The translations under genes were made by a program, and so were the position numbers. 64,000 nucleotides of DNA. Origin: Patescibacteria group bacterium (lineage in GTDB: Bacteria; Patescibacteriota; Patescibacteriia; 2-12-FULL-60-25). Every line of letters starts with the position of its first letter. Position 1 is the first letter of the stretch. Positions 893 to 61,640 of this stretch are shown here, piece after piece. Below the pieces are notes generated by a model. That model searched no databases, was not told the origin of the DNA, and worked only from the letters and a program-made list of their open reading frames with translations. Where the stretch lies: contig JAGOTP010000002.1 of assembly GCA_018061755.1 (NCBI GenBank), forward strand, positions 35,309 to 99,308. The letters run 5' to 3'.

Positions 893-974
893 TCGCAGTT
901 CGTTGCGGGAGATAAGGCGTTCCTTTTCTTTCGCGCATTTCTCAACAACTCGAGCAATCAAAGGATGGACTATC

Positions 975-1661
975 ATGCAGACGAATTCGGCCTTGATCAC
1001 GCGCCAGCTCTGGGTACTCGGGCTGCGGCTCGAGTTTCTCGTGAGTCACATCGACGGGCAGCGCGCCGCCGAGGAGCTCATCCGCTGCCTCCGGGCAACC
1101 CCTCAGGAGCCGGATCTGATCGAGATGCGCGCCGGAGAAATCGTGGCGATCAGCGACTTCCCCCGCCAGTGCGCAACGCTCGACTCGCTGATCGAAGGCA
1201 TCCGCTTCAAGGCGGAGAGCCTGGGCGGTCGACGGGTCGGGATCACGCTCACCTGGGACGATACCCAAGAGGGCATCTACGAACGTCTGCAGGCGTCCCT
1301 GCGGATGCTCGATAGCCCCCTGGAGCGCGCATTCGCGTACGAGGGTGCCAAGCTGATCACGACGCCCTCGGAGTGGAGGCTCGAGCTTCCCCAGGGTGAC
1401 GGCGAGCGGACCCTGTCCACGGATGCTCGCATCAGCCTCGGTGAACGAGTACGCGTGCAGCAGAACGGTTACCCGCAGATCAAGGCCCTCGAGGGCGAAG
1501 TTCTGACGGTCTACCGCAACCACTTCGGCATCTACGGCGGAGAGCATCCGCCGCGCCACACCCGAAACGACGTCTTCGCCTCGGTCGGCAACTTCTTCCT
1601 GAGGCTCGACCCGCGCACGGGCAAGATCGAGGTCTTCCAGCGCTCGGCGCGACCGACCTAG
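975..1661 (+). CDS. Hypothetical protein (GC-rich island 1), no signal peptide
   Basis: The ORF 804..1661 is trimmed to ATG 975, preceded by AAGGA. Third codon positions are almost all G/C. A 60-nt spot count at 1021-1080 gives 41/60 G+C. I recognise no domain. Confidence 0.7.
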   Translation: MQTNSALITRQLWVLGLRLEFLVSHIDGQRAAEELIRCLRATPQEPDLIEMRAGEIVAISDFPRQCATLDSLIEGIRFKAESLGGRRVGITLTWDDTQEGIYERLQASLRMLDSPLERAFAYEGAKLITTPSEWRLELPQGDGERTLSTDARISLGERVRVQQNGYPQIKALEGEVLTVYRNHFGIYGGEHPPRHTRNDVFASVGNFFLRLDPRTGKIEVFQRSARPT

Positions 1662-1677
1662 TCGACTCAACTTCTCA

Positions 1678-1725
1678 CACCCCACCCCGAACCTCACTGG
1701 CTCGCGCGGTGGGGTTTCGGATTTT
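1678..1725 (+). terminator. Hairpin terminator after the island-1 ORF
   Basis: CCCCACC (1680-1686) pairs with GGTGGGG (1708-1714), followed by the T-rich TTTCGGATTTTAT. Confidence 0.5.
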
Positions 1726-1789
1726 ATATTGTAGTGCGCCTCCATTTCTAGTATTCTTTTCTCATCTTTTTCCTACTGTTCTTTATTCT

Positions 1790-3019
1790 ATGAGAATGAA
1801 ATCGCCTGAGATGGGAGGACTTGGTGCTGCATCTGCTAAGCCAATTGAGGAACAATCTGCTCAACCATCAAAAGAACAGCCGAGCTTGCGAAAGCATGAG
1901 CCTTGGCTTACAGGCGCTCTGATGGCGTTGCTTGAACTCGCACCAGGAACGACAGAAGCGCAAGCTTTAACAGAACGCCGAACAACATCGGTAGCAGCGT
2001 TCAACCAAGTCGTGAAGAGTAGCCGCAGTGAACAGCGCGTGCGTTCGCCAATTGATGGGTTGCAACCTCCGGAATACGTGGGGCCAGCTCGTTTTACGTT
2101 CACGCACTTCCAATCGATACCTCATGGTATGCGCGACCGTGACATCCAAATTCGTCAGATGGAAAGAACGGTCGCTCAACCCGGAGTAGATCTGGTAAGT
2201 TTTTTAGAGGGACAGGCTCAAAATGGGGTCTACGTCGCCCTCGGCAGAACACGCAGCACACTCCGAGGAGCATTCCATGAACCCAACGAGCAACATGATC
2301 AATATACCGTCGAACGTCTCCAGTTTCACCCCGTCAGTAGCCGCAACATCGTTGACAGAACAACCGTCTTTGCTTCAAGGGGTCCTTTAACAGGCTCAAG
2401 ACGACAAGCCTACGAAGAGCATGGTGGTAGCTTTCCACCACTCGATGAAGCCGACGTTCTCAGCAGAGAACAGTTCGACTATGTTAACGTCGGATACAGT
2501 GCACCAAATCAAGATATCGCATATGAAGGAACTGGGGCTACGCAGGAAGAGGCTATTGAACAAGCGATGCTTCACCTGGCTGACGAACAACTAAGCCAAA
2601 ACATGCTTCCAGAACAAGCCCAAACAATGAGCATCGTTCGTCTTAGGTCAAGCAATACAGAGCATAGCGGTGTGCATCAAGAATATCGCTTTAGTCAGTT
2701 AGTCGGAGCGCTGTATCTCACAGATTTGCATCTTGTGACACAGCGCGAAGGCACCTCTTATAGAGCTTGGGTCAGTGGTAAAATGCGCCCAATCACTTCC
2801 ATGACTTTTCGAGACACAGATGGAATTGAAACGATTCGCCACTTCGAACCGACACAAAACTATATTCAAGAAAATACGCCTCAACCACCAGCTCAAGAAG
2901 AAACGCCTGACGATCCGGCAGAAACAACACCTACAGATGCGCCACGTGCAGGAACACAGGGCGAGAGACATCACAGACAGCCTAGACCAAGCTCGAGAGG
3001 ACGTAGAACGAGACAGTAG
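1790..3019 (+). CDS. Hypothetical protein (backbone composition) with a Pro/Glu/Thr-rich and then Arg/His-rich C-terminal tail
   Basis: The ORF 1709..3019 is trimmed to ATG 1790 (MRMKSPEMGG...). Codon usage resembles the backbone. No domain recognised. The start choice is uncertain. Confidence 0.6.
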   Translation: MRMKSPEMGGLGAASAKPIEEQSAQPSKEQPSLRKHEPWLTGALMALLELAPGTTEAQALTERRTTSVAAFNQVVKSSRSEQRVRSPIDGLQPPEYVGPARFTFTHFQSIPHGMRDRDIQIRQMERTVAQPGVDLVSFLEGQAQNGVYVALGRTRSTLRGAFHEPNEQHDQYTVERLQFHPVSSRNIVDRTTVFASRGPLTGSRRQAYEEHGGSFPPLDEADVLSREQFDYVNVGYSAPNQDIAYEGTGATQEEAIEQAMLHLADEQLSQNMLPEQAQTMSIVRLRSSNTEHSGVHQEYRFSQLVGALYLTDLHLVTQREGTSYRAWVSGKMRPITSMTFRDTDGIETIRHFEPTQNYIQENTPQPPAQEETPDDPAETTPTDAPRAGTQGERHHRQPRPSSRGRRTRQ

Positions 3020-3040
3020 AGGCTTTATTGTCTGCATATT

Positions 3041-3082
3041 AAAGAGACTAGTCACATACTGTATGACCAGTCTCTTTTTTGT
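3041..3082 (+). terminator. Rho-independent terminator
   Basis: AAGAGACTAGTC ... GACCAGTCTCTT hairpin (one mismatch) followed by TTTTTTGTT. Confidence 0.55.
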
Positions 3083-3121
3083 TATTGAATGGTTTTCTTT
3101 TCTCTCAACACAGCTAAAATG

Positions 3122-3151
3122 TTGACAAATGTGCCATTTTTATGTTATTAT
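3122..3151 (+). promoter_or_regulatory. Sigma70-like promoter (TTGACA-18-TATTAT) for the island-2 leader and ORF
   Basis: TTGACA at 3122-3127 and TATTAT at 3146-3151. A leader of about 160 nt follows, containing an AGGAGG-preceded 4-codon uORF at 3179-3193. Confidence 0.45.
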
Positions 3152-3315: not shown

Positions 3316-4599
3316 ATGACGACGAACAACAGCGACCAGAACACCAACGCCACCCAGGACGACTACGCCTTCTACAACCCGCCCCCTCGCAGCTGGCGAG
3401 AGGCACCGGCGGAAGACATCGATGCGATCAAGGCGCTCATCGCGGCCGAGAACCACGACGAGATCGCCGAGATCACGGAGTACGAGACCAGCTACCATCT
3501 CGGACTCCTCGCGGCTCACGGCTACCCCCGTGAGCGCCTGGTCACGCTCGTCCTCCAGCACTGCCGTGAGGCGAGTGGTGGACTGGGCGGCTGGACCAGG
3601 GACTTCCTCAAGGTCGAGAACGGCGAGATCCTCGACTACCTGGTCGAAGATGGCCCGTCGTCGACGCTGAGCTACCTCGGCCTGATCTCGACCCTGATCG
3701 AGCAGGATGCCGAAGGTGTGCTCGCCAACATCGAACGCGTGCTCCTCTACCGAGCCCGCCCGGATGATGGTACGCACGTCTGGCACCCGCGCGAGTGGGA
3801 TCGCGAGCAGTTCTCCGGTCTCATCCCCTGGCTCGACTTCGCGGCACGCGAGAGGATCCGGGACGCGCTCATCCGCCACATCCAGCTCATCCGGGCGGAC
3901 CTCATGCTGCGTGTCTTCTCGACGCCGCAGCAGCTGATGCTGTTCTTCGGCAAGCGCAACGCGCGCCTCACCCACACCAAGGAGACGAGCAAGCTCGCCG
4001 CCATCCTCGCGCTCCGTCACGGGACGAGTGAGGCAGAGTGCAAGAAGGTGTTCCAGCGGCGAAGCGACATCGCCGAGATGCGCGAAGCCAGTCACAAACG
4101 CGACAAGATCGCGAAGCCGCTCATCGAAGACATGCTCGCCGGAACGCCGAGCATGCTGCCTACTCTCTACTGCGCGATCCTGAGCGTCCCCCTGCTCGAC
4201 CCCAGCCTGACCGTTCGCAGCAGCTGGCTCGACGAGGAGCTGCGCGCCGTCCTCGAACAGCATGGCTGGCACTTCGCCAAGACCGAGCTCTGGCCGGGCG
4301 AGAACGACAGCCTGAGTCTGGTGGCTGTGGCTGAAGACCGTACGAACCGCCGACCGGATCGACTCCTCATCCTGGCCGAGAACCAGCCGACCTGCACGGC
4401 TCGCACGCTGAAGCAGACACCCCTCTCCACCCTGGCAGCCGGCGATGAAGTCATCTACCACCAGTCGCTTCACGAGCTGCCGATCAGCGTGCGTCGTGGA
4501 CGATACTCGGTCGTGATGCTCGATGTCGTCGACTCCAAGATCCTCATCACGCGTGGTGGTGAAGCACGGGCCGCCTACCCGGCCCTTCCCCTCCCCTGA
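3316..4599 (+). CDS. Hypothetical 427-aa protein (GC-rich island 2), apparently cytoplasmic
   Basis: The ORF 3247..4599 is trimmed to ATG 3316 (MTTNNSDQNT...), with GAAGAGG upstream. GC3 bias is strong. No domain recognised. Confidence 0.7.
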   Translation: MTTNNSDQNTNATQDDYAFYNPPPRSWREAPAEDIDAIKALIAAENHDEIAEITEYETSYHLGLLAAHGYPRERLVTLVLQHCREASGGLGGWTRDFLKVENGEILDYLVEDGPSSTLSYLGLISTLIEQDAEGVLANIERVLLYRARPDDGTHVWHPREWDREQFSGLIPWLDFAARERIRDALIRHIQLIRADLMLRVFSTPQQLMLFFGKRNARLTHTKETSKLAAILALRHGTSEAECKKVFQRRSDIAEMREASHKRDKIAKPLIEDMLAGTPSMLPTLYCAILSVPLLDPSLTVRSSWLDEELRAVLEQHGWHFAKTELWPGENDSLSLVAVAEDRTNRRPDRLLILAENQPTCTARTLKQTPLSTLAAGDEVIYHQSLHELPISVRRGRYSVVMLDVVDSKILITRGGEARAAYPALPLP

Positions 4600-4612
4600 T
4601 CCCTCCACCCCA

Positions 4613-4685
4613 CCGCGAGACCACGCCTCGCGGGATTCCCTCAGCTCATGAGTTCAGACTCTTGGCCTGAGGGAATTTTCATTTT
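4613..4685. terminator. Two hairpins between the convergent island-2 ORF and miaA
   Basis: CCGCGAG (4613-4619) pairs with CTCGCGG (4627-4633). ATTCCCTCAG (4635-4644) pairs with CTGAGGGAAT (4667-4676), followed by TTTTCATTTT. Confidence 0.5.
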
Positions 4686-4699
4686 CGCAACACACTAAC

Positions 4700-5620: not shown

Positions 5621-5634
5621 ACGGCCAGACAGTA

Positions 5635-7534: not shown

Positions 7535-8125
7535 TCAGCTGCTGCGCGCGCGGCGGCGGGAGCGACGCTCGTTGGAGGCGGACGTGCGGGGCGTGGGCGG
7601 CGTCGCGGCCGGGGCGGGCGCCTCGGCGGCGGCCGGCGGGGAGACCCACTCCGGCAAGTGCTGGGTGCGGCGGATGTCGGCCAGGTTGCGCCGAACATCC
7701 TCGAAGTCGGCGTCGTGCTGGTCGACCCGAGTGGTGAGCCGCGTGACACGGGCCTCGACCTCGCTGAACGGGGAGACGCAGATGCCCCGCTCCTGGTTCC
7801 AGATGGTGCCGCGGCAGCGGCACTTGCACCCGTCGTCGTCCCCGCAGCGGGTGACGCAGAGGCGCCGGCGCTCCTCGCGCTCGGCGCGCTCATCGCGGGG
7901 CGGCGGGGCGGCGACCACGGGCGGGTTGAGGGCCGCGTTGAGCGCCTGACACACCCGATCCTGGGTGTACCCCGGGCACATGACCATGGGGGCCTGGACG
8001 GTGACCGTGGTGGGCAGCGGCGGGACATCGACGGGCCACGACTGGGCGGCGGCGGAGCCGGCGACCAGCAACGTACCGAGGGCGAGAGACAGCGCGGGAA
8101 CAAGACGCTTGGTGAAACGCTTCAT
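7535..8125 (-). CDS. Hypothetical secreted protein (GC-rich island 3) with a Cys cluster
   Basis: The N-terminus MKRFTKRLVPALSLALGTLLVAGSAAAQS is signal-peptide-like. GAGGAG lies upstream of the ATG at 8125. Contains the cluster CVTRCGDDDGCKCRCRG. Strong GC3 bias. Confidence 0.7.
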   Translation of the reverse strand: MKRFTKRLVPALSLALGTLLVAGSAAAQSWPVDVPPLPTTVTVQAPMVMCPGYTQDRVCQALNAALNPPVVAAPPPRDERAEREERRRLCVTRCGDDDGCKCRCRGTIWNQERGICVSPFSEVEARVTRLTTRVDQHDADFEDVRRNLADIRRTQHLPEWVSPPAAAEAPAPAATPPTPRTSASNERRSRRRARSS

Positions 8126-8288
8126 GGGGACTCCTCGACCTAGCTATTCCTAAAACCAGGTCTTTTGGGGTTGAACACACGCTCCGCATCCGTCCAGCCA
8201 CAGGCTGAACTTCGGTTGGGAAGGGAGCTAAGGGACCGGTTAGATTTGCATAACCAGCCATTTTTGTCAAGAAAACGACGCCTTCCTA

Positions 8289-8318
8289 TTGACTTTTTTT
8301 GAAAAATACCTCTAAGAT
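8289..8318 (+). promoter_or_regulatory. Sigma70-like promoter (TTGACT-18-TAAGAT) for ORF 8457..9677
   Basis: TTGACT at 8289-8294 and TAAGAT at 8313-8318, in the AT-richer divergent intergenic region. Confidence 0.45.
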
Positions 8319-8456
8319 GTCCGGTTCCTCTGAGCTACGTCTTTAGTGACTTCTGCGGCAGAGGAAGCTACTTCACAACGTTTTCAACACAGGCTAAGGG
8401 CAAACCAGCCCAAGGCTCCACCACACCAGACCCCAGCTAATAAGGAGGGCAGGGTA

Positions 8457-9677
8457 ATGACACAACCGAACGACGGAACACCACAGAGAGGCGCGGGACA
8501 TCAAACCGCGCAAGACGGAGCACCCGCTCCGAAACAACCGCAGCAACCGCCCTACTTCGAGCCCGATGCGGACGCGGGAACACCGCTGCCCACGGGACAC
8601 GAGTACGACAACATTCACATCGATGCCATCCCGCCGGAGTTCCAGTACTCGGAAGCAGTCAGACGACGGAGGGAGCGTCGGGATGAAAGGACAGGAAAGC
8701 CCCTTCCACCGGTTCCAGTGAGGTCAGAACGACCGACGGAACCCGGCGGGGAGCGGCGCGACCCCGCCCCGCCGACGGCCGCAGCCCAACCTCCGTCAAC
8801 GGTCCCCACCCTGGTCGGTACCCCGGGTCACACCCCTGGTGCCGGCGCGACGGTCATGCTGAACGAAACGCCCCGAGTCCCTCACGTCGAAGCCTCCCAC
8901 GGCCCGCCTCAGAACCAGGGATGGGGAGGAGCGGTGTCCGCACAGAGCGGTCCGTTCGGGCAGACTCAGCAGCCCTGGCGGGCGCCCCAGCTCCAGCCGA
9001 CACCGCCGTCGCAGACCCTTCCGGCCACGGTCGGACCTCCCGCAACAGCGGCAACGCTCTGGGCGCCGCCGCCCCCGCAGGAGGCGCCGCCGCCTGCGGC
9101 ACCCGCCGCTCCCCCGGCGACGAGCGATGCCTCGCGTGAGAGCACGCAACCGCCCCCGCCCCCCGACGAGGGGTGGCGACTCTCCGTCGCGATCGGCATG
9201 TTCATGCTCGTGATCGCAGCGCTGGTGCTCACTCTCCATACCCGGGCTGCCTGGTACGACCGAAAGGTCGGCAACCCCGGCCGCTGGATCGCCGACCAGA
9301 TCGACGCGCGACGGGTGCCGGAACGCCCGGGCACGACCCACACCGACGCCGAACGACGCGCCGATGAGGCCAGCCGCGCGGCCGAGGCGCAGGCGCGAGC
9401 CATGCGCCAACGAGCAAACGAGGCGCAGCGACGGGTGGCGACGGGTCGCCCCCAGCGAGCCGCTCCCACCCCGCGCTCCGCGCCGACCCCGGTCACGGCC
9501 CCGCCGCCGACCCCCGTGCCGGCACCCATCCCGACGGCCCTGCCCCAGTGCAAGACCTGGGGCCAGCTGATCGACGAGGGACGAGCGGCCAACCCGGCAC
9601 CGTACCTCTACGCAAGGGGGCTGACTCGCCCTCAAGACGCTACCCGCGACACCGTGCTCTGTCGTAGCCCCAACTGA
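8457..9677 (+). CDS. Hypothetical proline-rich single-pass membrane protein (GC-rich island 3)
   Basis: The ORF 8346..9677 is trimmed to ATG 8457, preceded by TAAGGAGGG. It has a long Pro/Ala/Gln-rich N-terminal half, one hydrophobic helix (WRLSVAIGMFMLVIAALVLTL), and a charged Ala/Arg/Glu-rich segment. Confidence 0.65.
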   Translation: MTQPNDGTPQRGAGHQTAQDGAPAPKQPQQPPYFEPDADAGTPLPTGHEYDNIHIDAIPPEFQYSEAVRRRRERRDERTGKPLPPVPVRSERPTEPGGERRDPAPPTAAAQPPSTVPTLVGTPGHTPGAGATVMLNETPRVPHVEASHGPPQNQGWGGAVSAQSGPFGQTQQPWRAPQLQPTPPSQTLPATVGPPATAATLWAPPPPQEAPPPAAPAAPPATSDASRESTQPPPPPDEGWRLSVAIGMFMLVIAALVLTLHTRAAWYDRKVGNPGRWIADQIDARRVPERPGTTHTDAERRADEASRAAEAQARAMRQRANEAQRRVATGRPQRAAPTPRSAPTPVTAPPPTPVPAPIPTALPQCKTWGQLIDEGRAANPAPYLYARGLTRPQDATRDTVLCRSPN

Positions 9678-14944: not shown

Positions 14945-15304
14945 CTACCAGATCATCTCGACACCGGCCTTGACCACGGCCTTCTCGAGGAGGCGGCAGG
15001 TCCACTCGAAGTCGGAGCTCGCAGGATACTCGACCTCGACGCCGTTCGCCTCGATCATCCTGACGACCCCTCTGATCCAGTCGTGATCCTTCACTTCGTA
15101 CTGCCGGTCTCGCCAGTGCACCCGACCCTCGCGCTCAGCCCTCTCGACGATGCTGATGAGCTCAGGACTAAGCAATAGAAACACTGCCGACTTCTGGAGA
15201 TAGAAGGCGAAGAAGGAAGCGTGAAGGCTCGGCACGCTGATGTCACCCTCTCGAAGACCGCGATCCACGATGCCGAACGAGAACACGAGAAGAGGCTTGG
15301 CCAT
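14945..15304 (-). CDS. Hypothetical 119-aa protein (GC-rich island 4)
   Basis: ATG at 15304 preceded by GGGAGGG. GC3 bias is strong. No signal peptide and no recognised domain. Confidence 0.65.
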   Translation of the reverse strand: MAKPLLVFSFGIVDRGLREGDISVPSLHASFFAFYLQKSAVFLLLSPELISIVERAEREGRVHWRDRQYEVKDHDWIRGVVRMIEANGVEVEYPASSDFEWTCRLLEKAVVKAGVEMIW

Positions 15305-21098: not shown

Positions 21099-22421
21099 TC
21101 ACATCGCGGAGCAGACGAGGGCACCGCTGTCGCTCGCGGCACCACGAAAACCCCTGCCAGCGCCACCGTACATCTCCTCGTAACGGAGCAGTCCGGTGTT
21201 CATGGGGGCCGTACCGGCGTTGCAGAGCACCGTGATGCAGGAGAAGCTCGTCCCCGCACCGCATGAGAAGCCGCTGGGCAAGCGGCAGTCGGCCCCGCTG
21301 CAGACACTGTTGCCATCGGCTCCGAGGGGGATGCCCTCGAATCCGTAACCGCCACGCCAGTCAGTCGTGCTTGTGAAGAGGCGCGTGGGCACCTCTACGT
21401 CGGGGATCTGCAGGCGACGCAGGTCGATCCGGCAGGAACGCCGCCCAGAGGTGATCGGGGGGAGGCACGGGTTGTCGACGAAGGCACCGCGGTAGTTCGG
21501 AAAGCGACCGCTCACGATCCGCAGCCTGATCCCGACGATCTCGCCCCGCATATACACCAGCTCGAAGACCGGGTTCACCTCGGGCTCGCACACACCGCTC
21601 CCATTGCAGATGCCGGACCGGCAGAGGAGGCCGCAACGACCGCAGTGGGCGGCCGCCGTGTTGAGGTTCGCTTCGCAGCCGTTCGCCACATTGCCGTCGC
21701 AGTCACCGAAGCCGGGACGGCAGGCGTTGGCGCAGGCACCCGCACCGCAGGTCGGCGCGGCGTTGGGATTGGTCGTGCAGACCGTACCGCAGCGCCCGCA
21801 GTTGAGGCTATCGCCCTGGAGGTCGACGCAGCTCGTGCCGCAGCGGGTGAGACCCGTGGGGCAGGGCATGTCGACCGGGACGTCCGCACTCGCGTCGGCG
21901 TCGGGGGCCGTGGGGACGTCCGCGTCCGGGGTGGTTGCGGCGTCGCCGTCGGTCGGGACGTCGGGCGTGGGCACATCCGGGCGGTCGGCCAGGACGGACT
22001 CGTCCTCGGCGTCGCTACCGTCGGATCGGTCACCGCTCGCATCGGCGTCGGGCGCCGGGGTGACGTCCGCGTCCGGAGAGGTCGCGGCGTCGCCGTCGGT
22101 CGGGACGTCGGGCGTGGGGGCGTCGGGGCGGTCGGCCGTGGCGTCGTCGCCGTCGAGGGCCGCGTCGTCCGCGTCCCCGTCGAGCGGGAGGACGACGTCG
22201 CCGTCCTCGATCATGGTCACGTCCGGGTCGCTGTCGACCGGGACGTCCGCGCCGTCTTGCGGCGCGAGGTTGTCAGACGGGACATCGGTTCCCGTCTCGA
22301 ACGCCCCGTCAGGGGCAGAAGCACCAGGCGTGATCGCCTCGGTGTTGGTCGGATCCGGCTCGGCGCACCCAATCAGGGCGCCGAGCACGAACGAACCCAA
22401 CGTCAACCATACATTCTTCAT
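21099..22421 (-). CDS. Hypothetical lipoprotein (GC-rich island 5): acidic Asp/Pro/Thr repeats plus a cysteine-rich module
   Basis: N-terminus MKNVWLTLGSFVLGALIGC (lipobox-like) and GAGGAAGG upstream. Contains a 49-aa repeat present twice, then CGTSCVDLQGDSLNCGRCGTVC...CRPGFGDCDGNVANGCEANL...CGRCGLLC. A 60-nt spot count at 21901-21960 gives 48/60 G+C. Confidence 0.75.
   Translation of the reverse strand: MKNVWLTLGSFVLGALIGCAEPDPTNTEAITPGASAPDGAFETGTDVPSDNLAPQDGADVPVDSDPDVTMIEDGDVVLPLDGDADDAALDGDDATADRPDAPTPDVPTDGDAATSPDADVTPAPDADASGDRSDGSDAEDESVLADRPDVPTPDVPTDGDAATTPDADVPTAPDADASADVPVDMPCPTGLTRCGTSCVDLQGDSLNCGRCGTVCTTNPNAAPTCGAGACANACRPGFGDCDGNVANGCEANLNTAAAHCGRCGLLCRSGICNGSGVCEPEVNPVFELVYMRGEIVGIRLRIVSGRFPNYRGAFVDNPCLPPITSGRRSCRIDLRRLQIPDVEVPTRLFTSTTDWRGGYGFEGIPLGADGNSVCSGADCRLPSGFSCGAGTSFSCITVLCNAGTAPMNTGLLRYEEMYGGAGRGFRGAASDSGALVCSAM
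21893..22137 (-). repeat. In-frame direct repeat (about 97 nt, two copies, period about 147 nt) inside the island-5 ORF
   Basis: Copy 1 is about 21893-21990 and copy 2 about 22041-22137. They are near-identical (...GTCGCCGTCGGTCGGGACGTCGGGCGTGGG...) and encode ADRPD(A/V)PTPDVPTDGDAAT(S/T)PDADV. Confidence 0.7.
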
Positions 22422-22632: not shown

Positions 22633-22662
22633 ATTATAGCCAAAAAAGAGCGATTTTGTCAA
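22633..22662 (-). promoter_or_regulatory. Consensus sigma70 promoter (TTGACA-18-TATAAT) for the island-5 ORF
   Basis: The reverse strand reads GATTGACAAAATCGCTCTTTTTTGGCTATAAT. The -35 element sits in the loop and 3' arm of the prfA terminator hairpin. Confidence 0.55.
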
Positions 22663-33980: not shown

Positions 33981-34006
33981 GTCGCGTTGGTTCGTGGGGT
34001 GGTAGT

Positions 34007-34864
34007 TCAGGCTTCAGGGAGCGGACCGCGGACGATATTCCGCACCTTGTCACCGACGCGGAGCGTGCAGGGGCCGGCATGGATCAGACTGGCACCGAAG
34101 AGGGCGACCAGCTTGCCGCCACCCTTGCTAACACCATGAATGCGTTCGAGCGTAGCGAGAGGCTCCTGGCTTCTACGCTCACCTGTACGCTGGTCAGTCG
34201 TAATGATGGGGCAGCGCGTACGCCGCTTCACGTGGTGGAAATGGCCATCATTGATGTAGAACTCGCTGCATCCATCCTCGCCCCAGGGTCCTCCCATCCC
34301 CGTGACGACGATATTCGAACGGAAGTTCGCCATCGGATACGGACCCTCCCCAGCAGGCAGCTCCGCGTTGAGAGCAGCGAGGGATGCCTCGCTCGTCAGA
34401 GTGAACGGGCAGCCATCGGGGAAGCGGGTGCCCGTCGTGACATCCTTCGGCCGACGGCTCGGAACACGAGCGTGATCCGGAGGCGTCCCCACGAGTAGAA
34501 CATTCTGGCGCAGAAGATCAGAGAAGAAGTCGCGCGCTTCCCGACCCTGATCGACCGTCATGCTCGTATCGCCCCAGATAGTACCGGGGACACGTTCCCC
34601 GCTTTCCCAGGTAGAACGAGTGATGCTGAGCCGGCCATGCTCCCCGCCCTCAACCGTGACGACGAGGGCCCTGGGCGTCAGGTTGCAGATGACCTGAGCA
34701 AGCTCAGGATGATCACGCTGCGTGACAAACCGGCCCGAGGCTCGATCGATGATCATGAGACGACGATCGTGGCAGATGCCGAACTCATCGACCTCCGCCT
34801 CCTCGAGTGACGTTGCCCGACAGGACTTGATGTAATGCGCGAACAGACCAGTGACGACGCACAT
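34007..34864 (-). CDS. MOSC domain protein (N-terminal beta-barrel plus MOSC), GC-rich island 6
   Basis: CDS preceded by CCAAGGAGG. HDRRLMIID...FVTQRDHPELA...RFPDGCPFTLTSEASL...FRSNIVV...RCPIITTDQRTGE is the MOSC_N plus MOSC pattern with the conserved Cys. Strong GC3 bias. Confidence 0.85.
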   Translation of the reverse strand: MCVVTGLFAHYIKSCRATSLEEAEVDEFGICHDRRLMIIDRASGRFVTQRDHPELAQVICNLTPRALVVTVEGGEHGRLSITRSTWESGERVPGTIWGDTSMTVDQGREARDFFSDLLRQNVLLVGTPPDHARVPSRRPKDVTTGTRFPDGCPFTLTSEASLAALNAELPAGEGPYPMANFRSNIVVTGMGGPWGEDGCSEFYINDGHFHHVKRRTRCPIITTDQRTGERRSQEPLATLERIHGVSKGGGKLVALFGASLIHAGPCTLRVGDKVRNIVRGPLPEA

Positions 34865-52876: not shown

Positions 52877-53467
52877 TCAGGCCGCGGTCGGGGGGACGCT
52901 CGGCCGCGGTGACGACCCAGGCGACCGACTCGAGCGCGGCTGCCTGGCCACGGCACGGCGGGCGGAAGTGATCGGCACCACCTTCGCCGGTTCCGGAACG
53001 ACGACCGGGGTCACGGCCGGGATCTCGGACGGCGTGAGGATCGCCCAGGGCAGAGGCGAGGGACGGCGCTGCTCATCGAGCTGGATGTAGTCGGAGCGCA
53101 CCTCGGCCCCCTTCCGGAAGGTGTCGTCCGTCCAGAGCTCGATGTAGTTCTTCTTCCCCACCTGGCGACGCAGCTCGTCGAGGGTGCCCTCGAAGAACAG
53201 GCTCTGTCGCGCGATGCCCCGCACGGTCACGGGAGTCATCACCACGAGGTCCTTCAGCAGCACCTTCTTGGTGCCCGGCTCCGAGACGAGGCTGTTAGAC
53301 GGCCGCATCGGCTCTCCAGCCCCCTGCACCTTCATGTACGAGACCGAGACCTCCGCGCCTTCGCCCTCGCTGCGCTTGAGATCCCGCAGCTCCTCATCGC
53401 TGAGAGGCACCAGAACCCTTCGATACTGTCCACGATCCTTGTGAAACATCATCTGCACCATCTTCAT
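52877..53467 (-). CDS. Hypothetical 196-aa protein (GC-rich island 7) with a Pro/Ser/Arg-rich C-terminus
   Basis: Trimmed to ATG 53467, preceded by AGGAGAG. Strong GC3 bias. No signal peptide and no recognised domain. Confidence 0.65.
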   Translation of the reverse strand: MKMVQMMFHKDRGQYRRVLVPLSDEELRDLKRSEGEGAEVSVSYMKVQGAGEPMRPSNSLVSEPGTKKVLLKDLVVMTPVTVRGIARQSLFFEGTLDELRRQVGKKNYIELWTDDTFRKGAEVRSDYIQLDEQRRPSPLPWAILTPSEIPAVTPVVVPEPAKVVPITSARRAVARQPRSSRSPGSSPRPSVPPTAA

Positions 53468-54621: not shown

Positions 54622-54954
54622 TTAGGCGGTGTGACGTTCGTCGACAGGAATCTCGACCGTGCCGGACTTTCGACCATCGTCTTCGAGCGCGGGGACATCC
54701 GACATGCGAGCCGCGGGCTCATCACCGGGCAGTGACGGTCGAGAAGATTTCGGATTCAGCACGTTCACCGCACTAGGGTCGAGATTGATGTCGCTGAGAC
54801 GAACGACCCGCTTCATGCCGCCGCAGACGGAGACCTGGAGAGCGATGCCTCCACCTCCACGATGAGCGCGGAGGGCGCGCAGCAGAGGGGCAATGTCCGT
54901 CCCGCAACCGTCGAACGTGACGACCGAACCATCACTCGTCAAAGTCGCCTTCAT
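54622..54954 (-). CDS. Hypothetical 110-aa protein (GC-rich island 8)
   Basis: ATG at 54954 preceded by AAAGGAGG. Strong GC3 bias. No domain recognised. Confidence 0.6.
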   Translation of the reverse strand: MKATLTSDGSVVTFDGCGTDIAPLLRALRAHRGGGGIALQVSVCGGMKRVVRLSDINLDPSAVNVLNPKSSRPSLPGDEPAARMSDVPALEDDGRKSGTVEIPVDERHTA

Positions 54955-55214: not shown

Positions 55215-55553
55215 GTGCGCACCTTCATGTTCCTGCTCATCGCCTCAGCGTTCAACTGTCAGCCGGTGGCGATGAACCCGCCCGCGACCAACAGTGCGTC
55301 CCACAGGGACGTCATCGACAGTCTGTTGGTGGAGGACGCCTCTCACGAGACCGTCGTCTGCAATGGCAACATCCGCATCGACCCCGTCGAGTACTCGGCG
55401 GAGGACAAGGAACCGCCAGGGCAGCTGTACCAGCTCCGATGGGGCTGCGCCTCCCTTTCGGAGGACGGTCGCCTGCGCTGCGTGATCTACGCGACGCGAG
55501 GCCAGCTCAGACACGGCTTCTTCCAAATCCCACGCAAGTGGGGCGAGTGGTAG
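55215..55553 (+). CDS. Hypothetical small exported protein (GC-rich island 8)
   Basis: GTG start 9 nt after TAGGAGA. Hydrophobic N-terminus MRTFMFLLIASAFNC, with four further Cys residues. Confidence 0.6.
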   Translation: MRTFMFLLIASAFNCQPVAMNPPATNSASHRDVIDSLLVEDASHETVVCNGNIRIDPVEYSAEDKEPPGQLYQLRWGCASLSEDGRLRCVIYATRGQLRHGFFQIPRKWGEW

Positions 55554-55580
55554 TATCACCAGATCTAAGGAGACAACGTC

Positions 55581-55904
55581 GTGAGGTTCACAATCGCCTT
55601 GCTCGCGCTCGCCATGCTGGCGGGCTGCGAAGAGAACACCTACAACAACGGCGGCAACGAGGTGGTGGCATATACACTTCCGACACCACCCCTCCCCGCC
55701 CGAGACCGCTGCACTGACACGGTCGCGCTCGGTCTCGGGACTCACCCGGACTGCGCTGAACACCTGCGAATCCTGAGCAACGGCCAGTGCACGATCCCCG
55801 AGGATCGCATCTGGTTCACCAACCCCTTCCAGCGGTCGCCACAGGACACCGCTGAGACCTACTGTTCCCTCCTCGAGCTGCGGCTGACTGCGCCCAACCG
55901 CTGA
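55581..55904 (+). CDS. Hypothetical lipoprotein (GC-rich island 8)
   Basis: GTG start preceded by AAGGAGA. MRFTIALLALAMLAGC is a canonical lipobox. Confidence 0.65.
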   Translation: MRFTIALLALAMLAGCEENTYNNGGNEVVAYTLPTPPLPARDRCTDTVALGLGTHPDCAEHLRILSNGQCTIPEDRIWFTNPFQRSPQDTAETYCSLLELRLTAPNR

Positions 55905-60126: not shown

Positions 60127-60214
60127 AAAAGCAGTAAGCTACTAGAGAACAAAGACACATCTCAAGCATAGCGGCTCGGCGCCTAACGCACAATTTGCCA
60201 ACAATGAACCGATC

Positions 60215-61054
60215 CTATTTCAGCCAAACCTCATTCCAACCATCTACGACTGTCTTTTTCCAGGTTTGAGAGATGCGCTTGCGAAGTCCTCCATACGGAA
60301 CTTCGTTACAGATGTCGTAAGAAGACGAACAGAAATCACTAGCGCCCGTGCCGCGGATGGAACCGGTAGCGAGGTGCATATAGTAAGCTCCGTTCCAAGT
60401 CCCAAAACCAAGCCAAGTCGTATTGGCAGCCCCGCTACGCAACACACATCGGACGCCTTGTCCTTGGCGTGTTTTTACAGGCTTACGTGAAGAGCGAGCG
60501 GCATAGGCATCCAAACTTTGCACCGTGTACTGATCAAAATATTGCCCGCAGGTCGTAGGCGGTGGAAGAGGTACATAGTTGGCGCTTGGCACACGTTTCC
60601 AGGTTTCGTTCCAGCCTTGGCTAACCTGAAGCGTATCGCGATCAAGCCTTGTGATCACAAATCCACCGAAGTAGTCGCCTTGGACTGTTTCGCCATTGCC
60701 ATACATGTCTGTAGCAAAGGCTTGATAGGTATTTGCTTGAGATGCATCCGACGAAGCAAAGGCGTGACCAACATGACGATAGACAACATCGTCCCAACGA
60801 CCTTCACCATACCAAGCAAAGGCAGGCACGCGTTTCCCATTTTTAGGTTCAAGATTCCATTTGACACAGCGAATTCCTTCGCCCCAAAAGAAGTCGGGAG
60901 AAGAAACAACGTACGTTTCCATGTAAGGGCCACAAGAGAAGTTGGGCATAGGCTTTTGCTGAGCCTGAACCGCTGTTGGTAATCCAAGGCTAAACGTAAA
61001 CCCCAGGCTCAAAACGGCCGCGGATAGACGTACGAAAAGAGAAGGGTGTTTCAT
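60215..61054 (-). CDS. Hypothetical secreted protein made of two related Cys/Trp-containing repeats
   Basis: Signal peptide MKHPSLFVRLSAAVLSLGFTFSLGLPTAVQA. The pattern CGPYMETYVVSS...GIRCVKW...GWNETWKRV recurs as CGQYFDQYTVQS...GVRCVLR...GWNEVWLK. Confidence 0.65.
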   Translation of the reverse strand: MKHPSLFVRLSAAVLSLGFTFSLGLPTAVQAQQKPMPNFSCGPYMETYVVSSPDFFWGEGIRCVKWNLEPKNGKRVPAFAWYGEGRWDDVVYRHVGHAFASSDASQANTYQAFATDMYGNGETVQGDYFGGFVITRLDRDTLQVSQGWNETWKRVPSANYVPLPPPTTCGQYFDQYTVQSLDAYAARSSRKPVKTRQGQGVRCVLRSGAANTTWLGFGTWNGAYYMHLATGSIRGTGASDFCSSSYDICNEVPYGGLRKRISQTWKKTVVDGWNEVWLK

Positions 61055-61102
61055 ATCTCCACCCTACCTTATGACTGAAAAACTGACCATCCTGGCTAGA
61101 TC

Positions 61103-61131
61103 TTGGCTTTTTTCAGCACTTTTACTAGAGT
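61103..61131 (+). promoter_or_regulatory. Sigma70-like promoter (TTGGCT-17-TAGAGT) for the island-9 ORF
   Basis: TTGGCT at 61103-61108 and TAGAGT at 61126-61131. Confidence 0.4.
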
Positions 61132-61177
61132 AGGCTGGCCGCATTCACCCAGAGATGGCCCAAGGAGGGCCGCGCCA

Positions 61178-61567
61178 ATGCTGGCAAGACACAAACCCAC
61201 CACCAGCCTCTCGCTCTTCGCACTGCTCGCCTTCACGAGCAGCGTGGCGGCTGATCCGGCCAACCAGCCGACCAGCCGAACCGTCACCACCACGGTCACG
61301 ACGACCACAACGCGCACCGAGGAGCGCACGGTCGTGACCCAACCGGCTCCGGCCCTGCCGCCCGAGCCGGAACCTGCCGAGATGGCCCGCACAGCCGTCC
61401 GGAACTTCGACCGGGTCGCGGACGACGTCATCGCCCGCACCGATGAGATCATCGACCGCAACAGCCGACCGCCCTGCGGTCGGAGCTGCTGCGCCAGTCG
61501 GTCGTGCTGCAGGTCAACCTGCCAGCCCGGCCGCTGCCAGTGCCGGCACCATCGCCGACACCACTAG
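61178..61567 (+). CDS. Hypothetical secreted protein (GC-rich island 9) with a Thr-rich segment and a Cys/Arg/His-rich tail
   Basis: Trimmed to ATG 61178, 9 nt after AAGGAGGG. Signal-like N-terminus MLARHKPTTSLSLFALLAFTSSVAADP and tail CGRSCCASRSCCRSTCQPGRCQCRHHRRHH. Confidence 0.6.
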   Translation: MLARHKPTTSLSLFALLAFTSSVAADPANQPTSRTVTTTVTTTTTRTEERTVVTQPAPALPPEPEPAEMARTAVRNFDRVADDVIARTDEIIDRNSRPPCGRSCCASRSCCRSTCQPGRCQCRHHRRHH

Positions 61568-61593
61568 CGACGACGTTCGCCGTCGCTCTCACC

Positions 61594-61640
61594 TCAAGCT
61601 CGCCCCGGGACACTCCCGGCTGGCGAGCTTGATTCGTTCT
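61594..61640. terminator. Hairpin terminator between the convergent island-9 ORF and murB
   Basis: CAAGCTCGCC (61594-61603) pairs with GGCGAGCTTG (61621-61630), with a nested CCGGGA/TCCCGG. It is followed by ATTCGTTCT. Confidence 0.5.

Follow-up and report, generated by a model that had tools for sequence, protein, structure and literature searches.

GC-rich islands in the window

The window analyzed here, a stretch of 64,000 nucleotides, belongs to a Patescibacteria MAG related to Uhrbacteria: NCBI lists the source as Patescibacteria group bacterium, and among named MAGs its enolase is most similar to that of Uhrbacteria. Nine GC-rich islands described in an earlier note were recovered as the same segments by a sliding-window GC profile and by segmentation with 120-nt windows, both of which place the backbone at a GC content of ~0.49. 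In islands 3 and 8, a promoter region of lower GC separates two segments. The limits obtained are:

Island 1: 961-1720 (GC 0.65)
Island 2: 3281-4680 (GC 0.64)
Island 3: 7461-8160 (GC 0.71) and 8461-9780 (GC 0.71)
Island 4: 14881-15160 (GC 0.64)
Island 5: 20961-22440 (GC 0.69)
Island 6: 33941-34780 (GC 0.62)
Island 7: 52781-53440 (GC 0.66)
Island 8: 54521-54980 (GC 0.62) and 55201-55980 (GC 0.63)
Island 9: 61121-61660 (GC 0.67)

Twelve genes were assigned to the islands:

ISL1, 975..1661, plus strand: 228-aa orphan protein, GC 0.65, GC3 0.85; frame picked by GC3 peak and SD motif
ISL2, 3316..4599, plus strand: 427-aa orphan protein, GC 0.65, GC3 0.84
ISL3a, 7535..8125, minus strand: 196-aa secreted protein, classed by its signal peptide and conserved Cys motif, GC 0.74, GC3 0.92
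ISL3b, 8457..9677, plus strand: 406-aa proline-rich single-pass membrane protein, GC 0.71, GC3 0.75
ISL4, 14945..15304, minus strand: 119-aa orphan protein, GC 0.59, GC3 0.79
ISL5, 21099..22421, minus strand: 440-aa lipoprotein, lipobox LIGC, GC 0.70, GC3 0.85
ISL6, 34007..34864, minus strand: 285-aa MOSC_N and MOSC protein (Pfam), GC 0.62, GC3 0.69
ISL7, 52877..53467, minus strand: 196-aa orphan protein, GC 0.66, GC3 0.86
ISL8a, 54622..54954, minus strand: 110-aa orphan protein, strong SD motif, GC 0.62, GC3 0.66
ISL8b, 55215..55553, plus strand: 112-aa protein, signal-like N-terminal segment, GC3 0.87
ISL8c, 55581..55904, plus strand: 107-aa lipoprotein (LAGC), GC3 0.81, followed by CCATCCCAC at 55906-55914
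ISL9, 61178..61567, plus strand: 129-aa secreted low-complexity Cys-rich protein, GC 0.69, GC3 0.85

The GC3 ranges of these genes (0.66-0.92; GC 0.59-0.74) and of 52 backbone genes (0.38-0.62; GC 0.489 +/- 0.027) do not overlap, and their separation is complete (Mann-Whitney U = 624, the maximum; p = 8e-8). The earlier description of third positions as nearly all G or C is too strong for ISL6 (0.69), ISL8a (0.66) and ISL3b (0.75). Coding status is supported by GC1/GC2/GC3 periodicity, by an SD motif ahead of all 12 starts and by Cys, TM and signal features kept in orthologues. A long iPGM ORF extends spuriously into island 7. Island proteins are low in lysine and high in arginine, and signal peptides, lipoboxes and a TM helix were seen in the translations of the ORFs named as exported or membrane-bound, which make up about half of the products; the islands are enriched in such proteins.

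No match was obtained for ISL1 in Pfam, NCBIfam or PDB, nor any family or PDB match for ISL2 and ISL7. ISL2 retrieved only itself among 5.8e9 proteins, tblastn of related loci gave zero matches, and its AF2 model reached a pLDDT of 37.6. MOSC, previously taken as the sole recognizable domain, alone among Pfam domains scored above threshold; however, ISL5 bears a weak but real MXAN_6577-like Cys-rich domain (NF041328, E = 2.5e-11, under the curated cutoff), of a type typical of Myxococcota, in addition to acidic repeats and a C-terminal domain. The named homologues are from Myxococcales or Polyangiales. The model of the Cys-rich domain (pLDDT 83-93) showed no significant fold match in the PDB.

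Promoter-like and terminator signals of the islands

The following signals and neighboring features were located:

864..892, plus strand: sigma-70-like promoter of ISL1, TTGACA-17-GATACT with TG extension
1689..1717, plus strand: hairpin terminator of ISL1, C-rich stretch ahead, with ACACCCCAC at 1677-1685
3122..3151, plus strand: sigma-70-like promoter of ISL2, TTGACA-18-TATTAT, 11/12
4605..4690, plus strand: 3' region of ISL2, with CCACCCCAC at 4605-4613 ahead of hairpins and a T-run (end approximate)
8210..8331, divergent: promoter region of ISL3a and ISL3b, core AAAAAGTCAAT...TTGACAAAA
15448..15475, minus strand: sigma-70-like promoter of ISL4, TTGACA-16-TATTAT, 11/12
22633..22662, minus strand: sigma-70-like promoter of ISL5, TTGACA-18-TATAAT, 12/12
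33803..33876, plus strand: tRNA-Gln(CTG), separated from the GC-rich segment of island 6 by 64 nt
33947..34001, minus strand: terminator hairpin of ISL6, includes CCACCCCAC, kept in the relative L079
55092-55120: promoter of ISL8b, match 10/12

Most island genes are preceded by a near-consensus sigma-70-like promoter within AT-richer DNA and by a leader of ~80-210 nt, and are followed by a C-rich, G-poor 3' stretch and a hairpin terminator. Of the top six promoter-like sites in 60 kb, five precede island genes. Compared with 3' flanks in the backbone, the C-rich stretch is distinct (p = 2e-4); orthologues of ISL3a, ISL3b and the MOSC gene retain it. The core of the divergent ISL3 promoter is nearly invariant in seven genomes (alignment A1). 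The GC-rich domain spans about -90 to +60 relative to the ORF, and comparison with empty sites places the unit in the gap from the backbone terminator of one unit to the promoter of the next.

In agreement with the earlier note, integrase and transposase genes were absent among ~60 ORFs scanned against Pfam. A recombinase, a common recombination site and flanking repeats were all sought and none was found, which speaks against the dedicated cassette-capture machinery that had been considered. Likewise, the islands showed no attC-like cores and no tRNA-fragment repeat around them, and no duplicated fragment of tRNA-Gln lies at the far end of island 6. Neighboring genes at islands 1-5 are intact, as had been noted: their alignments with orthologues of relatives cover all or nearly all of their length.

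Independent assemblies and related genomes

The abrupt switches of composition within a metagenome-assembled genome would in themselves fit an assembly or binning chimera, in which high-GC fragments of another organism were joined into a CPR contig. Independent support for the junctions came from assemblies of four other sequencing runs and one separate NCBI assembly. L078, L169 and L170 match the window at 100% identity over islands 1-3, the Logan contig L078 crosses both ISL2 junctions at 100% identity, L168 represents a variant strain carrying islands 1-4, and the GDSL-side junction of island 6 was found in L171 and L172. Because independent assemblies reproduce them, islands 1-3 and this island 6 junction are not chimeric. 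Moreover, in relatives from unrelated samples the order of genes is unchanged and the corresponding slots hold GC-rich genes (islands 1 and 3-6), and the switches coincide with promoters and terminators rather than with arbitrary points. The assembly artefact suspected earlier is effectively refuted for islands 1-6, and we consider it almost certainly wrong as an account of the islands.

GC-rich orthologues of six island genes (ISL1, ISL3a, ISL3b, ISL4, ISL5 and MOSC), half of the 12, were found in matching intergenic slots of relatives, whereas the slots are vacant in other relatives. The EVE-miaA slot is occupied in L001 and L004, as it is in the window; it measures 39-72 bp in L002, L003, L005 and L021. 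Weak, GC-rich relatives of ISL1 lie in or beside this slot in L001 (E = 1e-5 at 26% identity) and, over 84 aa at 32% identity, in L006 (E = 0.001). The eno-SIMPL slot spans 2.0-2.9 kb (GC 0.63-0.68) in the window, L003, L004 and L006 and only 7-137 bp in L001, L002, L009, L016, L021 and L023. ISL3a had three true relatives among 1.84e9 representatives, and the two with readable context (P0151/L166 and P0152/L165) are both in the SIMPL-enolase slot. Orthologues are also present in L003-L006, lysine is at 0-1.5% in every one, and a mosaic revealed recombination inside the gene between L004 and L005. The TM helix and C-terminal Cys pair of ISL3b are kept in L003, L004 and L006, an ISL3b-like gene occurs in L165 and L166 too, and in L166 the low-GC gene at 6986-7366 is kept directly beside the GC-rich pair.

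ISL4 has an orthologue in L083 (57% aa identity) in the same FNR-ppa slot as in the window, and this slot stays unreplaced in strain mosaics while recombination swaps the backbone flanks. ISL5 has orthologues in L083, beside rpsB at a contig end (72-74%), and in L084, where prfA and rpsB flank it (41%). The MOSC orthologue in L079 has 69% identity and equal GC; next-best homologues (38-42%) are in 70% GC genomes outside the clade. For islands 7-9, the nearest SecA locus is only 64% identical, and in the more distant L085 the murB-hpf gap, the counterpart of the island 9 site, is empty (94 bp). Empty sites thus occur in some related genomes at eno-SIMPL, EVE-miaA and the island 9 gap. The genes shared with relatives diverge fast at the protein level, and no relatives of ISL2 or of the ISL3a family were found outside the clade. 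ISL2 may be a recent import because it was found only in this strain.

GC-richness persists at near-saturated divergence

Backbone fourfold sites differ between relatives at p4 = 0.56-0.73, compared with 0.73-0.76 if fully randomized (K4 ~1.2-1.7), and are close to saturation. GC4 decaying passively from 100% would therefore be capped at ~0.70 under Jukes-Cantor, a generous bound that presumes vertical co-descent of island and backbone, with backbone fourfold sites as a fair clock. ISL3a (0.77-0.95 in seven genomes), ISL3b (0.72-0.89) and ISL1 (0.83-0.88) show GC4 of 0.72-0.95 in all lineages, mostly over this bound, on small counts (n4 = 24-115 for island fourfold sites) from alignments at 30-50% identity. 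The values of ISL4 and MOSC (0.65-0.70), ISL5 in L084 (0.71), ISL3b in the window and L165 (0.72-0.74) and ISL3a in L003 (0.77) are indistinguishable from slow amelioration. Several island genes have thus been GC-rich far longer than expected of foreign DNA.

To our knowledge, no mechanism is known that holds single bacterial genes at GC3 0.9 within a 49% GC genome. Ordinary translational selection falls short of island GC3, since GC3 reaches just 0.47-0.59 in eno, gap, tsf and rpsB, backbone genes with high expression. Island genes and orthologues prefer CTC over CTG and GTC over GTG, opposite to two high-GC reference loci.

Origin and maintenance of the islands

We lean, by little more than an even chance, towards one explanation. 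The islands are real accessory genes on the chromosome of an Uhrbacteria-related lineage of Patescibacteria; their insertions would be old, and six or more of the 12 genes would since have been inherited vertically, with losses; and the GC-richness of ISL1, ISL3a and ISL3b, and probably that of ISL5, would be a stationary state rather than a fading donor signature. Foreign or novel DNA would most likely enter intergenic gaps by occasional illegitimate insertion in this bacterium, which recombines freely with its relatives. At least two genes, MOSC and ISL5 with its MXAN_6577-like domain, point to high-GC bacteria as a plausible source. Foreign origin is supported for just these two of the 12 genes. 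The force holding GC would act on roughly the transcribed unit, against the backbone substitution pattern, most likely as selection that disfavors lysine and codons ending in A/T or as GC-biased conversion; the latter seems to fit poorly, because mosaics replace backbone flanks yet spare the ISL4 slot. Since about half of the genes encode exported, lipid-anchored or membrane proteins, the products may be cell-surface factors of an episymbiotic cell, perhaps with a part in its interaction with a host.

An unlikely reading is that the genes are native clade-specific inventions, arisen de novo or as fast-evolving surface proteins, with GC upheld by a process linked to the transcription unit. Candidate processes are mRNA or codon selection and locally GC-biased mutation or repair. 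The clade restriction of ISL3a, the orphan status of ISL1, 2, 4, 7, 8 and 9, stationary GC4, a compositional domain that follows the transcribed unit including the C-rich 3' UTR, the shared CTC/GTC preference and native-GC genes conserved directly alongside island genes all agree with it, but MOSC and the MXAN_6577-like domain are clearly related to high-GC bacteria, the required mechanism has no known bacterial precedent, and the GC3 of eno, gap, tsf and rpsB puts it beyond ordinary translational selection. Improbable in our judgement is a recent origin, as proposed in the earlier note, by single captures from a high-GC donor (e.g. host or prey) too young to ameliorate. The isolation of ISL2, empty sites in relatives, the Myxococcota-type domain of ISL5, MOSC relatives in 70% GC genomes and lysine depletion with arginine enrichment, as is typical when proteins evolve in a high-GC genome, would fit. 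For islands 1 and 3-6 this is already contradicted: six of 12 genes have their closest GC-rich homologues at syntenic positions of the lineage across near-saturated synonymous divergence, the ISL3a family is confined to the clade among 1.84e9 representatives, and promoters and leaders look native, with an ISL3 promoter region nearly invariant among relatives. The proposal of the earlier note is thus supported in part, a high-GC source being plausible for two genes.

Still more doubtful is an unsampled GC-rich extrachromosomal reservoir (phage or plasmid) from which the cassettes came or with which they exchange, the chromosomal copies being moron-like with a composition set elsewhere. Patchy presence among relatives and the ISL3a mosaic between L004 and L005 are in line with it, as is the anatomy of the islands: promoter-gene-terminator units of deviant GC that lie between conserved genes have been described as phage morons. 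However, island proteins lack phage or defence family matches (marginally, ISL9 matched one PHROGs family of unknown function, and the low-GC gene 6986-7366 gave coiled-coil-type matches), 2.9 million viral contigs contained zero relatives of ISL2 or ISL3a and one weak domain-level match to ISL5, and slot positions are stable in up to seven genomes with nearby mobile-element genes absent. Taken together, we favor old, vertically inherited accessory genes with maintained GC.

Composition of the islands and their genomic surroundings

In a 400-nt profile and a 120-nt segmentation, the housekeeping backbone (about 0.49 GC) was broken by 11 segments with sharp borders and 0.62-0.71 GC, which match the nine islands described earlier, islands 3 and 8 each being divided by a lower-GC promoter region. 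In each island the choice fell on the ORF that combines a Shine-Dalgarno motif with the strongest GC peak at third positions, giving 12 island genes (ISL1 to ISL9, with ISL3a/3b and ISL8a/8b/8c in the divided islands). Their GC content is 0.59-0.74 and their third-position GC (GC3) 0.66-0.92, versus 0.489 ± 0.027 and 0.38-0.62 for 52 backbone genes, with zero overlap in GC3 (Mann-Whitney U at its maximum, p = 8e-8). Profile, segmentation and GC3 thus bear out the abrupt GC-rich islands in a moderate-GC backbone that the earlier note had described. Third positions of the island genes are C (0.47), G (0.34), T (0.12) and A (0.07). The encoded proteins contain lysine at 0.35 times the backbone level, and cysteine, proline and arginine at 2.4, 2.05 and 1.4 times that level, respectively. 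The ORFs of 400-450 codons far exceed the length expected by chance, even for DNA of 70% GC, and GC1, GC2 and GC3 follow the pattern of genuine coding sequence. An AGGAG- or GGAGG-like motif precedes the start in 12/12 island genes, and the signal peptides, lipoboxes (LIGC, LAGC) and TM helix previously assigned to these ORFs were seen in the translations.

Among about 60 ORFs, Pfam analysis revealed a backbone of the kind usual in small genomes (EVE, miaA, eno, SIMPL, pgk, FNR-like, ppa, gap, tsf, rpsB, prfA, rpmE, glycosyltransferases, a MacB-type ABC system, queA, mltG, nth-like, iPGM, NUDIX, secA, hpf, murB and murC). Among these ORFs of the 64-kb window there was no integrase, transposase or phage structural gene, in agreement with the earlier note for integrases and transposases. 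Of the three tRNA genes, tRNA-Gln (33803-33876) ends 64 nt from island 6, the only island adjoining a tRNA. A search for a repeat of its end at the other side of this island gave nothing beyond a 10-nt chance match, so that the reported absence of a tRNA-fragment duplication stands as well. Two backbone ORFs are listed here:

27487-30288, plus strand, RmlB-RmlD-RmlA fusion ORF of 933 aa (Pfam)
51127-52956, minus strand, mechanically called iPGM ORF, about 85 extra N-terminal codons of which enter the GC-rich 3' region of ISL7

The fusion ORF joins dTDP-glucose 4,6-dehydratase, dTDP-4-dehydrorhamnose reductase and glucose-1-phosphate thymidylyltransferase domains, i.e. three steps of dTDP-rhamnose synthesis in a single protein. 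The true start of iPGM is probably the ATG near 52700 (MSRPKPV...).

At NCBI, ISL2 and ISL3a are entered as the hypothetical proteins KBD34_01090 and KBD34_01110 of "Patescibacteria group bacterium", encoded on a contig of 130,506 bp. The closest relatives of the enolase (86-89% identity) are found in six MAGs, and the next tier (67-74%) includes Candidatus Uhrbacteria MAGs. For SecA, a metagenome scan yielded only distant relatives (≤64% identity) and an exact look-up gave no match. Many of the closest relatives, including L001-L006 (loci of other genomes or per-run assemblies are designated L), were deposited as "uncultured Gammaproteobacteria bacterium". This looks like systematic mislabelling, as gene content and enolase identity place these loci with Uhrbacteria-like CPR.

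Recurrence of the islands in independent assemblies

An assembly artefact was among the explanations offered for the islands, but independent per-run assemblies reproduce them. L078 (SRR31843405) is 100% identical to positions 2670-4753 and spans both ends of island 2, L169 (SRR11088367) is 100% identical over 1-13950, and L170 (SRR31843402) over 7119-9484. L168, a 75-kb contig of SRR25679421, represents a variant strain with islands 1-4. The junction between the GDSL gene and ISL6, the MOSC gene, is present in L171 and in the separate NCBI assembly GCA_020047435.1 (L172). A chimera is excluded for islands 1-6; for the remaining islands it is unlikely.

Architecture of the GC-rich units

Consensus-like promoters were predicted from sequence matches upstream of ISL1, 2, 3a, 3b, 4, 5, 6 and 8b, with leaders of about 80-210 nt between promoter and start codon. 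In the 60 kb scanned, the top promoter-like matches lie upstream of island genes (ISL5, 12/12 positions; ISL2 and ISL4, 11/12). ISL1 and ISL8b follow with 10/12, a score reached by a single non-island site (45001-44973), which belongs to the following gene:

44634-44951, minus strand, MazE/AbrB-type antitoxin-like small gene

Such matches are expected in intergenic regions anyway, and the enrichment is therefore suggestive, not decisive.

Downstream of the stop codon, the first 40 nt are C-rich and G-poor in 9/12 island genes, ahead of a terminator hairpin (mean C minus G 0.26 for islands vs 0.05 for the backbone, p = 2e-4). The sequence CCACCCCAC occurs with ≤1 mismatch no more than 16 nt from the stop codons of ISL1, ISL2, ISL6 and ISL8c.

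Examples of the C-rich 3' stretch, often containing CCACCCCAC or CCCTCC
1677-1685
4605-4613
33994-34002, minus strand
55906-55914

The C-rich stretch is kept in the orthologues of ISL3a, ISL3b and the MOSC gene and is not found in those of ISL4 and ISL5; in function it could be rut-like or anti-SD-like. Most of the hairpins that come next are followed by T-runs, matches for which were obtained after ISL1, 2, 3b, 6 and 7. Averaged over the 12 genes, GC begins to climb at about -90 and is highest within the ORF (0.63-0.69). The 60 nt beyond the stop still have 0.63, after which GC falls to 0.43-0.50, indicating that the compositional domain roughly equals the predicted transcribed unit.

The intergenic region between the divergent genes ISL3a and ISL3b (about 110 bp) is recognisably conserved, with nearly invariant back-to-back -35 boxes AAAAAGTCAAT...TTGACAAAA. 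In an alignment of seven genomes (A1, positions 8210-8331), the -35 box core and a CGGTCC.TT element are nearly invariant although the flanking coding regions are only at 30-49% amino-acid identity, which suggests a putative conserved regulator binding site between the two genes.

The proposal of an undescribed cassette-capture mechanism found nothing to build on in the window, where neither a recombinase nor an attC-like core nor a shared flank sequence was seen. The attC-like core pair (RYYYAAC ... GTTRRRY) is absent from 11/12 island 3' flanks, the pattern being no commoner there than window-wide, and no k-mers of ≥11 nt are common to the island flanks. A shared recombination site was rejected, the flanks having in common a compositional C-rich motif only. 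Diversification of the DGR type was likewise dismissed: a reverse transcriptase is absent and A exceeds T on the coding strands.

Variable slots and orthologues in relatives

Gene order is kept in L001-L006, L083, L084, L079, L165 and L166, and particular intergenic slots differ. A comparison for empty sites in relatives had been proposed as a check, and gaps of 7-137 bp were found at the eno-SIMPL, EVE-miaA and murB-hpf positions.

Filled and empty states of intergenic slots
eno-SIMPL, filled: window, L003, L004, L006 (2.0-2.9 kb, 0.63-0.68 GC)
eno-SIMPL, empty: L001, L002, L009, L016, L021, L023 (7-137 bp)
EVE-miaA, filled: window (3.8 kb), L001 (1.3 kb), L004 (1.0 kb)
EVE-miaA, empty: L002, L003, L005, L021 (39-72 bp)
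rpsB-prfA, filled: window, L084, L016 (1.8-2.5 kb, 0.58-0.64 GC); empty: none seen
murB-hpf (island 9), filled: window; empty: L085 (94 bp)

Comparison of empty with filled eno-SIMPL sites places the insertion point in the gap that separates the enolase promoter from the terminator hairpin of SIMPL, with no target duplication. The fillings are homologous: one divergent pair is found in the window, L003, L004, L005 (partial), L006, L165 and L166. ISL3a is secreted and carries additional cysteines besides a conserved "Y-x-V/M-C-P-G-T-S/T-Q...L-C" motif, and ISL3b is a single-pass membrane protein, rich in proline, that has a cysteine pair at its C-terminus; across genomes their orthologues share 30-49% amino-acid identity. 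L083 aligns with 13063-21924 in a single 8.9-kb block (78.5% nucleotide identity) and carries orthologues of ISL4 (57% identical) and of the lipoprotein gene ISL5 (72-74%). A 621-aa ISL5 homologue lies between prfA and rpsB in L084, and the MOSC gene has an orthologue of equal GC in L079 (69% identical). Weak relatives of ISL1 are located in or beside the corresponding slot of L001 and L006, while no relative of ISL2 was obtained in any locus or database searched.

Orphan or poorly conserved genes of ordinary GC are situated at 1709-3019, 6986-7366, 12583-13794, 60215-61054 and 45003-46967. The first four of these five lie in variable slots together with GC-rich genes, and the L166 orthologue of gene 6986-7366 (70% identical, GC 0.40) is directly beside the GC-rich pair. 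As the slots also house genes of ordinary GC, accessory status does not equal GC-richness.

GC-rich ORFs were also seen in other Uhrbacteria-like loci and are repeatedly lipoproteins (L022 3377-4693, L023 985-2631, L024 139-831, L037 1147-1941, L084 8001-9866). Several of them share the Myxococcota-type Cys-rich repeats of ISL5. A class of GC-rich exported proteins is thus not unique to the genome of the window.

Affinities of the island genes

ISL6 scores above the Pfam gathering cutoffs for both domains of a YcbX-like MOSC domain protein (PF03476, MOSC_N beta-barrel, 75 bits, cutoff 25; PF03473, MOSC, 45.6 bits, cutoff 22.7). After two CPR relatives, its next-best homologues show 35-42% identity and include proteins of L081 and L082, contigs of 0.70-0.71 GC with a GC3 of about 0.9; named matches are from Polyangiaceae, Aquisalinus, Agrobacterium and Acidovorax. 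The earlier view of MOSC as the sole recognisable domain holds as far as MOSC itself is concerned and needs extension for ISL5, which matches positions 19-102 of the 145 of NF041328 (MXAN_6577-like cysteine-rich) with 43.7 bits (E = 2.5e-11). By this match ISL5 shares an MXAN_6577-like domain, yet is no family member, the NCBIfam cutoff being 100 bits. Its named database homologues are from Myxococcales, Polyangiales or "Deltaproteobacteria", and the domain is also found in GC-rich lipoprotein genes of the Uhrbacteria-like L022, L023 and L024. When 1.84e9 representative proteins were scanned in full with HMMER, ISL3a had three true relatives only; both of those with readable context are from CPR genomes and have the gene in the eno-SIMPL slot. 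A high-GC bacterial origin is thus supported for two genes, the MOSC gene and ISL5, and unsupported for the rest.

Searches of the orphan island proteins against phage and defence libraries (PADLOC, PHROGs), Pfam, NCBIfam and PDB sequences returned nothing usable. A single-sequence AlphaFold model of ISL2 was uninformative (pLDDT 37.6). The model of ISL5 was confident solely in the Cys-rich domain, for which no significant PDB fold match was obtained (weak EGF-like/cysteine-rich likeness, E ≥ 1.9).

Persistence of GC-richness

At fourfold-degenerate sites the backbone of the window differs from L001, L003, L004, L006 and L166 by p4 = 0.56-0.73, with full randomisation at 0.73-0.76 (Jukes-Cantor K4 about 1.2-1.7). 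If island sites evolved as the backbone does, at about 0.6-0.85 substitutions per site and lineage, a gene starting from 100% GC would reach a fourfold-site GC (GC4) of at most about 0.66-0.72. Island codons were compared in tblastn-derived alignments, which are small samples.

GC4 of island genes and their orthologues
ISL3a: window 0.92, L166 0.93, L165 0.82, L003 0.77, L004 0.88, L005 0.91, L006 0.95
ISL3b: 0.72-0.89 in window, L166, L165, L003, L004, L006
ISL1: 0.83-0.88 in window, L001, L006
ISL5: 0.81-0.90 in window, L083, L022, L023; 0.71 in L084

Most values exceed 0.70 (binomial p 1e-3 to 1e-16), with ISL3b (window, L165), ISL3a (L003) and ISL5 (L084) as the exceptions. The GC4 of ISL4 and the MOSC gene (0.65-0.70) and the lowest values of ISL3b (0.72-0.74) are compatible with slow amelioration or decay. 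Alignable island fourfold sites have diverged to the compositional limit between the window and L003, L004 and L006, and to about 70% thereof in L166, indicating that the islands aged together with the backbone. Lysine is at 0-1.5% in every ISL3a orthologue. Given GC4 above the passive bound in genes as old as the backbone, and assuming vertical co-descent and a fair backbone clock, the GC-richness of several islands appears to behave as a stationary property, not as a relic.

Translational selection for optimal codons was rejected as a cause, since highly expressed backbone genes have a GC3 of 0.47-0.59 and lysine depletion is not codon-level. Transcription-linked cytosine deamination predicts more G than C on the coding strand, and the reverse was observed.

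Recombination

The L168 strain is identical to the window through 12989 and patchy over 12990-18195, with 5-30% differences per 100 nt. Near-identical tracts within this region are the tRNA-Ile region (13800-14199) and the whole FNR-ppa slot of ISL4 (14862-15561, four differences). The mosaic edges coincide with cassette-slot borders. The simplest reading of these alignments is that homologous imports replaced flanking core genes and halted at the end of homology. A further mosaic was seen between L004 and L005, the enolases of which are near-identical:

L005 280-800 against L004, N-terminal two thirds of the ISL3a orthologue, about 25% nucleotide divergence; adjacent C-terminus and enolase 0-3%

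This patch reflects either allele exchange or local diversification. Together the two mosaics suggest that recombination is frequent, in keeping with the DNA-uptake capacity reported for Patescibacteria (PMC12455944). They are anecdotal, with a patch in ISL3a in one case and replaced flanks around an unreplaced cassette slot in the other. Recombination is not obviously concentrated in cassettes, and this makes GC-biased conversion a weaker explanation of their composition.

Origin and significance of the islands

Taken together, these results would fit a model in which the islands are old accessory genes, each transcribed on its own and mostly encoding surface or secreted proteins, that occupy recurrent gaps between terminator and promoter in a recombining genome poor in mobile elements. 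Some of them may have been acquired from high-GC bacteria, the six traceable genes would since have been inherited vertically with losses, and a force at about transcript scale would keep several of them GC-rich. The acquisition from a high-GC donor proposed earlier retains its donor, in that the MOSC gene and ISL5 do have high-GC affinities, and recency does not hold for ISL1, 3a, 3b, 4, 5 and 6. Recent capture from a host could apply to no more than ISL2 and islands 7-9. If combined with an in-situ GC drive, a purely native origin would account for the orphan families but misfits the MOSC gene and the Cys-rich domain. An extrachromosomal reservoir of cassettes has no direct support: viral contigs scanned with ISL2, ISL3a and ISL5 revealed no such reservoir, and no relatives of ISL2 or ISL3a.

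For the old accessory genes that we prefer, we tentatively consider it possible, if rather doubtful, that an exported-protein gene class is held at a GC3 of about 0.8-0.95, nearly without lysine and A-ending codons, by a gene- or transcript-bounded force for longer than synonymous saturation. If true, this would be gene-scale, long-lived compositional heterogeneity against amelioration, inside a 49% GC genome and beside conserved low-GC genes, and would imply an undescribed selective or repair/conversion process, a force shaping the base composition of single bacterial genes. Atypical GC is the standard flag of recent horizontal transfer and amelioration the standard transfer clock. Here the flag is raised by old, syntenic genes, with a clade-restricted family in the case of ISL3a, and for several of them the clock has seemingly stopped. 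Composition-based calls of horizontal transfer in Patescibacteria and other MAG-only lineages would then misdate, and possibly mis-source, genes for surface proteins. The island genes are evident candidates for the genes with which an uncultured episymbiont contacts its host, and the Myxococcota-type domain of ISL5 is one concrete, testable lead to the partner organism. For Patescibacteria, both horizontal transfer and genomic islands have been documented before (PMC12455944). In the literature found, there was no report of scattered GC-rich single-gene units or of persistence in their composition, nor a description of a Myxococcota host or the MXAN_6577 family.

Comparison with known systems

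Lawrence and Ochman are said to have proposed the amelioration model for horizontally acquired islets of atypical composition. As in such islets, deviant accessory genes of variable presence lie among core genes, with donor affinity for MOSC and the Cys-rich domain. In contrast to them, the units comprise 1-3 genes without mobility genes or repeats, the ISL3a family was found solely in the recipient clade, and for several other families no outside relatives were detected. Unlike in the amelioration model, the composition has not drifted to that of the recipient while backbone synonymous sites are nearly saturated. Recently transferred genes should be absent from close relatives, have nearer homologues in a donor lineage than in that of the recipient, and decay toward the recipient in composition; ISL1, 3a, 3b, 4, 5 and 6 have syntenic GC-rich orthologues, and GC4 is 0.77-0.95 for ISL3a and 0.83-0.88 for ISL1 against a bound of about 0.70.

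Integron cassettes are likewise small, mostly single-ORF units with a structured 3' element and no mobility function of their own, but the islands are scattered and not arrayed, most have their own promoter, and there are no attC-like cores. No IntI-type tyrosine recombinase, Phage_integrase or other recombinase was detected by Pfam in the approximately 60 ORFs of the 64 kb. The integrase and tRNA-end repeat of a tRNA-integrated genomic island are both absent. GC-biased gene conversion, which Lassalle et al. reportedly described in 2015 as driving bacterial genes apart in GC3, could in principle hold GC3 above mutational equilibrium in much-recombining genes, and recombination in ISL3a is visible. 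However, the boundaries here are gene-scale, the flanks in L168 were replaced with the cassette slot intact, and to our knowledge the reported effects are far below the 0.3-0.4 GC3 gap of the islands.

Phage morons, which lie between conserved phage genes, are autonomous units of promoter, gene and terminator with a deviant GC. Similarly, the islands lie in gaps between conserved transcription units, differ sharply in GC from their neighbours and, as far as sequence matches predict transcripts, most have a sigma-70-like promoter and a hairpin terminator, i.e. they would form autonomous promoter-ORF-terminator units of deviant composition. Unlike morons, they occupy fixed slots across relatives in a bacterial chromosome, among genes of glycolysis, translation and the cell wall (eno, pgk, gap, rpsB, tsf, prfA, secA and murB) and not in a prophage; phage genes are absent from their surroundings, and no structural or replication PHROG families were detected. 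With chromosomal hotspots, the islands share given intergenic positions that are filled or empty depending on the relative, and homologous recombination on the flanks. Pangenome hotspot regions are usually AT-richer than the core, often with mobile-element remnants, whereas the islands are 13-25 GC points richer and carry no such remnants. The islands thus lack what defines integron cassettes and tRNA islands, and at least half of the genes lack the marks of recent transfer. They resemble phage morons most in architecture and pangenome hotspots in population behaviour.
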